This document shows positions 50,138 to 52,726 of a DNA stretch of 64,000 nt, piece by piece (position 1 is the first letter of the stretch; each line of letters starts with the position of its first letter). The position numbers and the translations under genes are program-made. The stretch is taken from contig JAZLLQ010000020.1 of the NCBI GenBank assembly GCA_045598245.1, forward strand, positions 13,772 to 77,771, written 5' to 3'. A model generated the notes under the pieces. The model did no database searches and was not told the DNA's origin. It saw only the letters and a program-made list of their open reading frames with translations. Origin of the DNA: Candidatus Gastranaerophilales bacterium (GTDB lineage Bacteria; Cyanobacteriota; Vampirovibrionia; Gastranaerophilales; JAILCC01).

Positions 50138-52726
50138 TTATTCTTCGATTTCTTTTTCTTCGTCTTCTTTCAATTCAACGATTTCATCAAAGATTTCATC
50201 AGGAATATTAGCATTATTTTCAACTTTATCTTTAATTGCTTTGAAGTTTACTTCGCCTTTCAGAGCTACTACACCGTGTTTGTTCAAAGTTAATATCGCA
50301 TCTTTAAGGTTTGTAGAGGCTGTTTCTTTCTTCTCTGTTGAGTTTGCGGTAACTGCTTCATCTGCTGATTTTTTTGCATTCCAGATGTCCGCATATTCTC
50401 TGGTTTCTCCGTTAACTACAAAGGTTGCACCTTCCTGCCTCATTATATCGTTATTCTTTCCGTCATAATTTTGAGTTAATTGAGTTTCTGTTGTTTCCGC
50501 AAGATTTATTTCAGTAATACCTAAGTCTGCCAATGATTTTGCTTCACCGCCGTATCCGTTTGTCATTGTTAAGCCATATTTTTTACTTAGCAAATCAATA
50601 TCTTTTTCGTCTAATTTGTTATCATTTTCTCCAATCAGACCTTCTTTTTTTGCAAGAGCTTTTAATGCTTCAAAGCCGTCTTTGTACCCGTCAGCTACTC
50701 CGTCACCATCAATATCTGTGTTATCTCCGAATAATTCCGAACCGTCTTCACCTGCAATACCATCATGGTCTTTATCGAATGCTAAAACCCATTCTGCTGA
50801 ATTGTTTACGGTATCTAATTCTCCGTCACCGTCAATATCAAATGATACTGTTTCATCGGTTGTATTTATTCCGTTACCGTCAACGTCAAATGAAAGAGGT
50901 GAGCAGGTTTCGTAGCAACAAGATTTTTCTTCGGCTTCTCTTGCGTCTGTCCAACACTCATTTACACCGCTGAGTTTGTATGCGGGTCTGCCACTGCCGT
51001 CAGTAGCTTCAGAATATTTGCTTTTGGGAATTCTTCCGCTGCCTTTTGGTACTATGTCGTAACTTTCTTTACTGCAGCCGAGGTAGTATCTTGCTACACT
51101 TTGGTAAGCACCGTTTTTAGGCGGGTCCATTATGTAAATATGCCAATTATTGTCTGCCCCTTGCATTATTAAACAGTTTTCGAGATTTACACCTTTTTCT
51201 TTTGCAAAATTTTTCTCTTTTTCTGATACAAGTGCGAGAACTTCTGCCGCACTCAGCCCTTTTCCTTCTTTCTTTTCGGCTTCATGTGCTGCTTCTAATT
51301 CGGTAATTTTATCGGATATTGTAGTTTTATCTTTTTGTTTTACGCTCAAATCGGCATTTAAAGTTTCAATTTTTTTATTGTTTTTGTCTATATTTTCAAC
51401 TGTAGTTGCTAAATTGGCAGTTATTTCAGCAAGTGATGCTGTTGCGGCATCAAGAGCAGCTTGCGCATTTTGTACAACATTTGATTGTGTCATAATATTT
51501 TTCAAGGTAGCTTGTGCTTGTTCAGAGAGACTTTCTGATTTCCAATTAAGCATATTTAACTTTGTGAATGTTGGGAACCCTACATTATCCATTTGTTGTG
51601 CGAAGTATGTTTCAAAGTTATCACCATCTTTTTCGGGGTTATAATTTTTAATGATATCTTTTACCGCAGCATCCATTTCTAATTTGAATTCTTCAGATTC
51701 ACGTTCTTGTTCTGCTAAAATTTCTTTGTTTAAATGTTCAATTTCTTCTTGATAGTTATCATATTCTTTTGTATAAACTTCAAGTTGTTCTTCTTCTTTT
51801 TTGAGGTTTTCCGTTGCTGTTTCAACTTCTTCCTGTGCTTTTGTTTGTGCTTTTTCAAGTTCGGCTTTTTGTTCCAATAATTTGTCATTTGCATCTTGAA
51901 TTTCTTCAATTTGTGCGCTCAATGCTTCAATTTCTTTATTTATTGCATCAAGTTTTGTTTTTAATTCTTCAAGTGTTGAAGTGGATATATCCGTACCGTC
52001 ACTTAATTTGACAGGTGCTGCTGCCGCTGTCGGTGTTGTACCTTCAGTTGCGGTCGGAGTTGTTGCTCCTTCGGTTGCGGCAGGCGTTGTTGTTCCCTCG
52101 TTTGCTGTTGGCGTTGCAGCTCCTGATGAACCTTTTTCTGCCTTAGAAATTAAGGTTTCTGCCATTGTGTCTGCATTAGAAGTATACGGTATTTGTTCAA
52201 CAGGTTTTCCGTCAACAAATTTTATGATAAACGGTAAAGTTGAACCTGATATTTTGAAATCACCCATTATTTGTTTTCTTACTGCACTTTGAGTATCACA
52301 GTCTAAAGAAACAACATTTGCATGTTTTGAAATTTCATCAAATTTACTTTGAACATTTTTTTCGTACGTTCTGCATCTTCCGCAGCGACCGATAGCACCT
52401 ATAACAACATAAACAGTACCTTTACTGTTAAGAATTTCGTCTTTAACATTTGATGAATCTATTTCCGTTAATCCGTATTTGTTTTTACCTGCACCGGTTT
52501 TGGATGCTTTTGAAGAGCCTGTTTTTTTGACTGATGTATCAATCATTACTTCCGAATCGTCATCAGCTGCTGAAAGAAGATTTGAAATTGCATTTTTTAT
52601 TTCTTCAGTAGCTTCGGCTTTATCTTTGTCGTTTATTACACCGTCATTGTTTACATCTAATTCCTCAAATGATTGGGATATTCCGATGTTTCTTAAGTTT
52701 TCAAAAGCTATTTTATTAATTTCCAT
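50138..52726 (-). CDS. Multidomain protein: EF-hand, thioredoxin-like (CGRC), Thr/Ala/Pro linker, coiled coil, FrpC self-processing-module-like C-terminus
   Basis: DVNNDGVINDKD; CGRC and TLPFIIKF.DGK; SPLSFDVDGNG...SELFGDNT...GFEALKAL...KSLADLGI. Confidence 0.85.
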   Translation of the reverse strand: MEINKIAFENLRNIGISQSFEELDVNNDGVINDKDKAEATEEIKNAISNLLSAADDDSEVMIDTSVKKTGSSKASKTGAGKNKYGLTEIDSSNVKDEILNSKGTVYVVIGAIGRCGRCRTYEKNVQSKFDEISKHANVVSLDCDTQSAVRKQIMGDFKISGSTLPFIIKFVDGKPVEQIPYTSNADTMAETLISKAEKGSSGAATPTANEGTTTPAATEGATTPTATEGTTPTAAAAPVKLSDGTDISTSTLEELKTKLDAINKEIEALSAQIEEIQDANDKLLEQKAELEKAQTKAQEEVETATENLKKEEEQLEVYTKEYDNYQEEIEHLNKEILAEQERESEEFKLEMDAAVKDIIKNYNPEKDGDNFETYFAQQMDNVGFPTFTKLNMLNWKSESLSEQAQATLKNIMTQSNVVQNAQAALDAATASLAEITANLATTVENIDKNNKKIETLNADLSVKQKDKTTISDKITELEAAHEAEKKEGKGLSAAEVLALVSEKEKNFAKEKGVNLENCLIMQGADNNWHIYIMDPPKNGAYQSVARYYLGCSKESYDIVPKGSGRIPKSKYSEATDGSGRPAYKLSGVNECWTDAREAEEKSCCYETCSPLSFDVDGNGINTTDETVSFDIDGDGELDTVNNSAEWVLAFDKDHDGIAGEDGSELFGDNTDIDGDGVADGYKDGFEALKALAKKEGLIGENDNKLDEKDIDLLSKKYGLTMTNGYGGEAKSLADLGITEINLAETTETQLTQNYDGKNNDIMRQEGATFVVNGETREYADIWNAKKSADEAVTANSTEKKETASTNLKDAILTLNKHGVVALKGEVNFKAIKDKVENNANIPDEIFDEIVELKEDEEKEIEE

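Follow-up and report, generated by a model that had tools for sequence, protein, structure and literature searches.

What is the function of a protein that joins an EF-hand-like loop, a CGRC thioredoxin fold, a flexible linker, a long coiled coil and a domain resembling the SPM of FrpC in one chain, and is it cut and covalently linked to a target as its likeness to FrpC would suggest? This question is raised by a gene of a Candidatus Gastranaerophilales bacterium, found in a 64,000-nt stretch of DNA (the window; GenBank assembly GCA_045598245.1, contig JAZLLQ010000020.1, positions 13,772 to 77,771) from a genome of 2.06 Mb that is 97% complete. The gene is a monocistronic open reading frame (ORF) of 862 amino acids (aa) plus stop codon (P0001), located at 50138..52726 on the minus strand, as are all its features given below. 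A first-pass annotation of the window had listed a set of modules for this ORF, called their combination unprecedented-looking, and proposed an extended surface or secreted protein that could be clipped and covalently attached. All of the listed modules are present in the real ORF, in the order of an approximately 60-aa leader with the EF-hand-like loop, the thioredoxin-fold CGRC domain, a repeat linker, an interrupted coiled coil, a new globular domain, an SPM homologue and a tail. The architecture proved rare and uncharacterised, and its CxxC is conserved in relatives; it is thus neither a common, characterised arrangement nor one whose CxxC varies among homologues. We found that the gene is a member of an expanded family of modular, leaderless (lacking a Sec signal), acidic stalk proteins in Gastranaerophilales. 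We favour, with a probability of about 0.5, the explanation that it encodes an exported stalk protein routed through the flagellar apparatus; calcium would trigger folding, without cleavage, of its SPM homologue, and its thioredoxin domain would be a PDI/DsbC-like cargo.

SPM, the self-processing module known from Neisseria FrpC, has been described from RTX proteins of Gram-negative pathogens and has been engineered as a protein-ligation tool (NeissLock). To compare it with the calcium-type domain at residues 610-785 (50372..50899), we searched the PDB with a domain-only alignment of diverse family members; the full-length profile was swamped by coiled-coil matches. The 23-sequence domain profile matched 6sjw (E=3.1e-22) and 6sjx (E=5.4e-21) and nothing else in the whole PDB, with the Pro, which stands at profile position 7, falling on chain residue 1 of the FrpC SPM structure. 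The single sequence 610-785 also matched 6sjw (E=0.0018), in an alignment that starts exactly at Pro610, corresponding to FrpC Pro415. Because FrpC SPM was the only structure matched, the homology is secure, and residues 610-785 are assigned by profile as a true homologue of this domain. None of the Pfam models searched covers the domain, and PF26745 is the precomputed match for four homologues. Therefore, the tether proposed in the first-pass annotation holds: the flexible repeat and long coiled coil join the thioredoxin domain to a calcium-type module homologous to FrpC SPM.

The SPM homologue was modeled by AlphaFold2 with a predicted local distance difference test (pLDDT) score of 85-98 and contains four DxDxDG-type loops (614-619, 630-638, 651-664 and 670-680). 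By alignment mapping, the first FrpC calcium site, a DxDxDG loop with a later Asp, is kept (D614, D616, N618, G619 and D651), as is the second EF-like loop (D651-E664), whereas the third and fourth FrpC EF-hand sites are replaced and two other DxDxDG loops are gained, at 630-638 and 670-680. The ELFGDNT motif is also kept, and the bond-straining FrpC residues L475, G477, D478 and D579 are conserved as L665, G667, D668 and D780; of these, D478 and D579 belong to the transient fifth calcium site of FrpC. As in FrpC, the domain begins with the corresponding Pro, spans about 175 residues and follows a cargo region, in a protein that is acidic and leaderless. Unlike in FrpC, it is terminal or near-terminal with no RTX repeats after it, an extra conserved globular domain stands directly ahead of it, the genome yielded no canonical type I secretion genes, and the host is a cyanobacterial relative rather than a proteobacterial pathogen. 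The family represents a large natural occurrence of the SPM scaffold outside the RTX context, in gut relatives of cyanobacteria.

The decisive difference lies at the bond itself. In FrpC, the carboxylate of Asp414 attacks its own carbonyl across the calcium-strained Asp414-Pro415 bond, giving a cyclic anhydride (PMC7078468). The corresponding site in the 862-aa protein, marked by the Pro at which the 6sjw alignments begin, is Ser609-Pro610 (50897..50902). Ser precedes the Pro in 102 of the 105 close homologues with a locatable motif (Asp in 2, Thr in 1) and in 72 of 86 wider representatives at 50% identity (Thr 7, Asp 6, Cys 1), and Ser609 is conserved at 97% within the motif Y-x-T-x-S-P. Since Ser replaces Asp, the anhydride clip-and-link chemistry of FrpC is unavailable, and the 862-aa protein, examined for the defining Asp-Pro feature, falls outside the clip-and-link class. 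The idea that it could be clipped and covalently attached was thus not borne out; the protein also has no RTX repeats, with no GGxGxD found in it.

We nevertheless weighed a true clip-and-link mechanism, in which calcium would make the protein cut itself where the SPM homologue begins, and the freed thioredoxin-stalk fragment would be covalently joined to a target, as in the Asp-Lys cross-linking of the FrpC type. The solid homology and the retained bond-straining residues speak for it, and so do close Asp-Pro relatives within the family (P0047, P0049, P0052 and P0146) and a pre-Pro residue limited to Ser, Thr, Cys and Asp. We built a maximum-likelihood tree of 147 domains, on which the nine rows with Asp are explained by no fewer than five independent changes, or by eight if the best tree is taken. 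As Asp arose this often among Ser lineages, the domain scaffold is probably still competent for cleavage. However, the FrpC nucleophile forms a five-membered anhydride (PMC7078468), a ring that a Ser hydroxyl cannot form; by chemical reasoning, Ser would need a strained four-membered lactone. In addition, the Ser is strongly conserved, and turns capped by a side chain classically have Ser, Thr or Asp in front of Pro, which is a sufficient structural reason for the conservation. We consider a structural role of the pre-Pro residue more likely than self-processing, and regard cleavage and linkage by the 862-aa protein as highly doubtful.

The Asp rows fall inside groups of Ser rows, only a short distance from their Ser neighbours, with P0146 beside P0072 and P0047 beside P0013 and P0019, which indicates that lineages flip between both states on an otherwise unchanged scaffold. 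Two of the Asp-Pro members, P0047 and P0049, are without the globular domain that precedes the Ser elsewhere in the family. These Ser/Asp swaps between close relatives offer a natural series for the non-cutting scaffold role and for the residues that make the domain cut. We also noticed SPM-like domains with a true Asp-Pro in three proteins from other metagenomes (P0158, P0163 and P0166), directly after Gly-rich, hydrophobic, membrane-active-looking segments; in these, calcium might set free a small membrane-active peptide. In the genome of the 862-aa gene, three Cys-rich repeat proteins of 766-1,093 aa, C33_7374_10655(+), C19_73708_76008(-) and C51_149_3067(+), end in a divergent SPM-like domain, also with Ser-Pro, and one of them begins with a prepilin-type N-terminus (GFSVSEMMIAMGLIGILA).

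If the SPM homologue is not a cutting device, what would the stalk carry? The thioredoxin-fold domain covers residues 80-196 (52139..52489), close to the 52140-52470 given in the first-pass annotation. Sequence comparison gave a weak signal: Pfam Thioredoxin PF00085 scored 17.7-19.8 bits, below its gathering score of 23.5, and matched five of the nine thioredoxin-carrying relatives (best E=1.5e-8), and the best thioredoxin-family PDB match by sequence was a PDI-like protein with E=0.04. An AlphaFold2 model of residues 1-235 (nine-row alignment) settles the predicted fold, with a pLDDT of 75-86 over residues 80-196 and the classic thioredoxin order of beta-alpha-beta-[CxxC]-alpha-beta-alpha-beta-beta-alpha. 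Foldseek retrieved 355 PDB matches to this domain model at E<=0.001. The top 50 were thioredoxins, thioredoxin-type domains (ERp46) or thioredoxin fusion constructs, and the best thioredoxin matches reached E=2e-7, a TM-score of about 0.8 on the target and a root-mean-square deviation of about 2 A. In the model, C115 and C118 of the CGRC motif (residues 115-118, 52373-52384) lie at the start of helix 116-127, and P165, a candidate cis-Pro, stands just ahead of strand 166-171. All three residues are invariant in the nine aligned relatives with the module, which answers the earlier question of whether the Cys pair is conserved. Judging from these residues, the module looks redox-competent.

The active-site motifs in the family are CGRC, CGYC, CGFC, CGWC, CGHC, CHGC, CTYC, CQYC and CYYC. 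CGYC is the motif of DsbC and CGHC that of PDI, while CGPC is the motif of reducing thioredoxins; a separate WCGPC thioredoxin is encoded elsewhere in the genome. With the PDI a-domains (CGHC) and Escherichia coli DsbC (CGYC), the domain shares the thioredoxin fold, the CxxC at the start of helix 2 and the cis-Pro loop, and the family dipeptides GY, GH, GF, GW and GR add to this likeness, as do tandem arrays of two to three modules, known from PDI and seen in the relatives P0176 and P0201. It differs in having no Trp before the first Cys, no signal peptide and no dimerisation domain, and in sharing its chain with a coiled-coil stalk and a calcium module; its sequence identity to solved thioredoxins is only 15-24%. 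Because the CxxC motifs resemble those of DsbC and PDI rather than CGPC, thiol-disulfide exchange on extracellular targets is the most likely activity.

The thioredoxin domain is not a fixed part of the family. Compared with the same-genome paralogue P0006, residues 1-63 and 252-846 align well, whereas residues 64-251 are replaced by 36 residues. Thus, the thioredoxin domain and linker form an optional cassette of 188 aa, present in few family members. Another paralogue, P0008, retains it, so that two of at least six genome copies carry the cassette; among about 120 close homologues, it occurs only in P0005, P0007, P0008 and P0009. The divergent P0054 also has a thioredoxin cassette, again with CGRC. 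Further, the leader-plus-thioredoxin front recurs in P0176, P0201 and P0209, where two or three thioredoxin modules stand in tandem ahead of different C-terminal bodies. In P0176 and P0201, a MEINK leader is followed by two to three modules (CHGC and CGHC; CTYC and CQYC, with one copy degenerate), in a PDI-like layout.

The next question is whether the protein leaves the cell. It has no signal peptide and no hydrophobic or transmembrane segment (the top 19-residue Kyte-Doolittle mean is 1.07), and since only five further open codons lie upstream of the start, no signal peptide is hidden there. With a size of 94 kDa, an isoelectric point of 4.5 and D-rich calcium-type loops, this acidic protein bears the marks of export, in keeping with the surface or secreted stalk suggested earlier. 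One could instead assume that the protein is not secreted, but is a cytoplasmic or flagellum-associated coiled-coil protein with a structural or regulatory role in the motility regulon, its D-rich domain being an interaction module and its thioredoxin an intracellular redox sensor. This would fit the lack of a signal peptide, the long coiled coils, which like those of bacterial cytoskeletal proteins match crescentin, and membership of the sigma-28 regulon described below. However, the homologue of its C-terminal domain, FrpC SPM, folds only at extracellular calcium levels (PMC7078468), and the domain itself contains DxDxDG loops, four in all. The family also combines several gene copies with rapid divergence and exchangeable cargo, a pattern typical of proteins that are secreted or displayed at the surface, and its CxxC motifs are of the PDI/DsbC type rather than the cytoplasmic CGPC type that the genome's own thioredoxin has. 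We therefore give an intracellular role only a small chance.

As for the route, upstream of the gene is a sigma-28 (FliA)-type promoter motif, TAAAG-N15-aCCGATAT (52765..52791), which ends 38 nt upstream of the ATG. We scanned the genome with the pattern TAAA-N14-16-CCGATA[AT] and obtained 62 sites, compared with 13-20 in shuffled sequence. Within 250 nt upstream of ORFs, sites precede three flagellins, the 862-aa gene, its paralogues C30_710 and C41_70180, and the leader-sharing C1_29858, and also an 871-aa repeat protein in the window (14641-17256, minus strand) and proteins of 1,604, 4,696 and 4,875 aa. The latter three, C22_56542_61356(+), C11_101097_115187(+) and C28_43184_57811(+), are leaderless, as is the 871-aa protein. 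The large proteins behind the motif imply a putative FliA regulon consisting mainly of flagellins and very large repeat proteins. A FliA gene is also present (238 bits; cut-off 189.6), and the motif was found upstream of all five homologues examined elsewhere, at the metagenome loci L016, L017, L018 (weak) and L019 and in the genome G087.

The distribution of the family points in the same direction. Among 121 genomes of the order, strong family-type matches (E<1e-40) were present in 11, comprising 10 of the 40 flagellin-positive genomes and 1 of the 81 flagellin-negative ones. The flagellin-negative exception, G087, still has the promoter motif, FliA, a full-length FlhA-family gene and a rod-protein gene. 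The genome of the 862-aa gene (G000) has two full-length FlhA-family genes (C9:10843-12882 and C29:13273-15375, 873 and 680 bits), the second of which has FliH as its neighbour. In flagellin-negative genomes of the order (relatives G087, G022, G025, G042, G002 and G029), the FlhA type of 680-705 bits is retained, together with FliA above its cut-off and one to two rod-protein genes. Non-flagellated Gastranaerophilales have been reported to retain a subset of flagellar genes (Soo et al., PMC4040986). The second FlhA-type set may be a flagellum-derived export system kept after filament loss. We also observed on contig L019 (2419-3771, minus strand) that the Asp-Pro member P0049 divergently adjoins a gene for a FliI-type type III secretion ATPase.

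For type I secretion, the route of FrpC-like proteins, no HlyD or HlyB at family cut-off was present in this 97% complete genome: the highest HlyD score was 53 bits (cut-off 208.65) and the highest HlyB score 324 bits (cut-off 725.55). From the missing Sec signal, the missing canonical type I system, the two FlhA-family genes and the co-occurrence with flagellin, we infer flagellar-type export. A precedent exists in Campylobacter jejuni, in which non-flagellar proteins are exported by the flagellar system via an N-terminal signal (PMC2764114, PMC5223770). Like the Cia, FspA and Fed proteins of that gut-dwelling motile host, the 862-aa protein has sigma-28-linked expression (here by motif), no Sec signal and an N-terminus thought to hold export information. 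Unlike them, it is much larger and multi-domain, it is unrelated to them in sequence, its export is a proposal, and flagellin-less relatives also keep the genes.

Another exit is conceivable for the same extracellular stalk and thioredoxin role: an atypical type I-like ABC exporter reading the C-terminus, or vesicles or lysis, with sigma-28 reflecting mere co-regulation with motility. Every SPM protein characterised so far leaves by type I secretion and has C-terminal calcium domains that fold once outside (PMC7078468, PMC3034196), and the SPM homologue stands at or near the C-terminus of hundreds of different proteins. Moreover, some proteins with the same promoter, such as P0003, contain RTX-like GxGxD repeats, and SPM-like domains are present in 12 flagellin-negative genomes. 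But the HlyD-type and HlyB-type matches stay far below their cut-offs, the C-terminal tail is unconserved and missing in many members, and the conserved, shared part is the N-terminal leader. We thus consider such an exit unlikely.

Under the favoured explanation of flagellar-routed export, the 862-aa protein would be produced alongside late flagellar genes and exported unfolded, N-terminus first, through a flagellar-type type III apparatus, with the shared N-terminal leader serving as the export signal. Outside the cell, calcium would fold the C-terminal SPM homologue through the two retained FrpC sites of four and the two new DxDxDG loops, and the Ser609-Pro610 bond would remain intact. With the bond intact, the SPM homologue would act as a calcium-triggered folding or anchoring knob and not as a clip-and-link device, and the coiled coil would hold the thioredoxin domain tens of nanometres from it. 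Candidate targets of the thioredoxin domain would be Cys-containing domains of its own family, which would bypass the periplasm, or alternatively the disulfide-rich host mucus met while swimming. A stalk-displayed disulfide-exchange enzyme made only while swimming could in this way act on host mucus or on the secreted proteins of the bacterium itself.

Several points weigh against this explanation. The sigma-28 assignment is a putative one, made from the motif. The flagellar apparatus of this lineage would have to pass folded-domain cargo, and also the giant proteins behind the same promoter, and an extracellular thioredoxin would act here with no obvious recycling partner. A Foldseek search of the PDB with the C-terminal model gave nothing significant and did not retrieve the nuclear magnetic resonance structure of FrpC, so that the SPM homology rests on sequence profiles. 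Finally, the four residues seen before the Pro are all nucleophiles, which could mean a chemical rather than a passive role for this site, and the FrpC residues D478 and D579, which strain the bond, have their counterparts in D668 and D780.

Extending the favoured explanation beyond this gene, we tentatively propose, with a modest chance of being right, that a sigma-28-controlled, flagellum-derived apparatus might be a general secretion system of Gastranaerophilales. Its cargo would be polymorphic leaderless calcium-folding proteins, from MEINK-leader stalks to giants of 1,600-4,900 aa, and species that lost flagellin would keep the apparatus (FliA, one FlhA paralogue, FliH and two rod proteins). 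The SPM homologue would then be a switchable end-piece that stays attached with Ser-Pro, clips and links with Asp-Pro, and flips repeatedly between the two. The sigma-28 link and the flagellar export genes of non-flagellated relatives suggest a secretion route for an uncultured lineage widespread in human and animal guts. The parts themselves are known; the value would lie in an SPM scaffold with a natural series of Ser and Asp variants, a leaderless secretome linked to sigma-28, and a PDI/DsbC-like domain displayed on a stalk. The first-pass annotation had seen neither the globular domain at 491-608 nor the Ser before the Pro, the optional thioredoxin cassette, the paralogue family and the FliA-type promoter.

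The remaining modules are as follows. The N-terminal leader (residues 1-60, 52547..52726, MEINKI...FE.LDVNNDGVI) is kept in homologues and is modeled as helical with a pLDDT of about 70-80. At least nine ORFs of this genome carry the same leader, and in one of them, which encodes 560 aa, the body is unrelated. Within it lies the EF-hand that had been noted before, a single EF-hand/dockerin-like loop conserved in homologues (DVNNDGVINDKD, residues 24-35, 52622-52657), which fits D-x-N-x-D-G-x-I-x-x-x-D and has short flanking helices in the model. Canonical EF-hand loops have 12 residues between helices and usually come in pairs. No Pfam EF-hand model matches the 862-aa protein, and by manual check the loop fails the last PROSITE EF-hand position and has a Lys at the hydrophobic post-loop site.

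Behind the thioredoxin domain, the flexible Thr/Pro/Ala/Glu/Gly-rich linker of TPTATEG type (residues 204-238, 52013..52117) is encoded by a 27-bp tandem repeat in 3.4 copies (52034-52124), and the pLDDT is below 50 across residues 199-235. The coiled-coil stalk (residues about 240-490, 51257..52009) matches SMC, crescentin, ATG16 and myosin rods and is split into two segments by a YNPEKDGDNF hinge (362-371) that is conserved in the family consensus. The globular alpha/beta domain ahead of the SPM homologue (pre-SPM domain, residues 491-608, 50903..51256; pLDDT mostly 80-96) contains six of the nine Cys of the protein and ends in the conserved Y-x-T-x-S, with a low-confidence hinge at 602-607 between it and the Ser-Pro in the model. 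It had no Pfam match and no significant Foldseek match in the PDB, and within this genome it is confined to family members. The optional C-terminal tail with its acidic end (residues 786-862, 50141..50371) is absent from many family members, which end right at ADIWHAKK.

We next consider the size of the family. The genome contains four complete copies (the 862-aa gene and those on C30, C41 and C14) and two cut by contig ends, besides the more distant SPM-like ends on Cys-rich proteins, and four more contig ends start with near-identical leader copies. Altogether, six contig ends (C38, C44, C49, C46, C30 and C15) lie inside near-identical family copies; as the assembly breaks at paralogues, these copy numbers are provisional. 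In a library of 1.84 billion proteins, 840 representative clusters matched at E<=0.001, with the SPM-like part at or near the C-terminus of proteins 187 to 4,614 aa long. Named genome matches are nearly all Gastranaerophilales or Melainabacteria from animal guts, and the homologues with a named source are Candidatus Gastranaerophilales and Melainabacteria gut metagenome-assembled genomes (MAGs). The SPM-like domain alone also occurs in Vampirovibrionales and a few MAGs of other phyla.

No partner gene is kept in the neighbourhood across four complete paralogues or four foreign loci, so the operon context gives no clue for the 862-aa gene. An intrinsic-terminator-like hairpin (50108..50131) directly follows its stop codon. 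Two ORFs of similar size in the window, 11807-14431 and 14641-17256, were considered as paralogues and ruled out. A 92-aa ORF at 48795-49073 (minus strand) resembles glycoside hydrolase family 108, the phage-type lysozyme, over the N-terminal 76 positions only (E=8e-20), and is probably a truncated remnant of such an enzyme. About 1.4 kb from the 3' end of the 862-aa gene, with two small ORFs between them, the plus strand encodes a 656-aa ankyrin-repeat protein (46761-48731); such repeats are not often seen in free-living bacteria and are frequently a sign of proteins that interact with a host.

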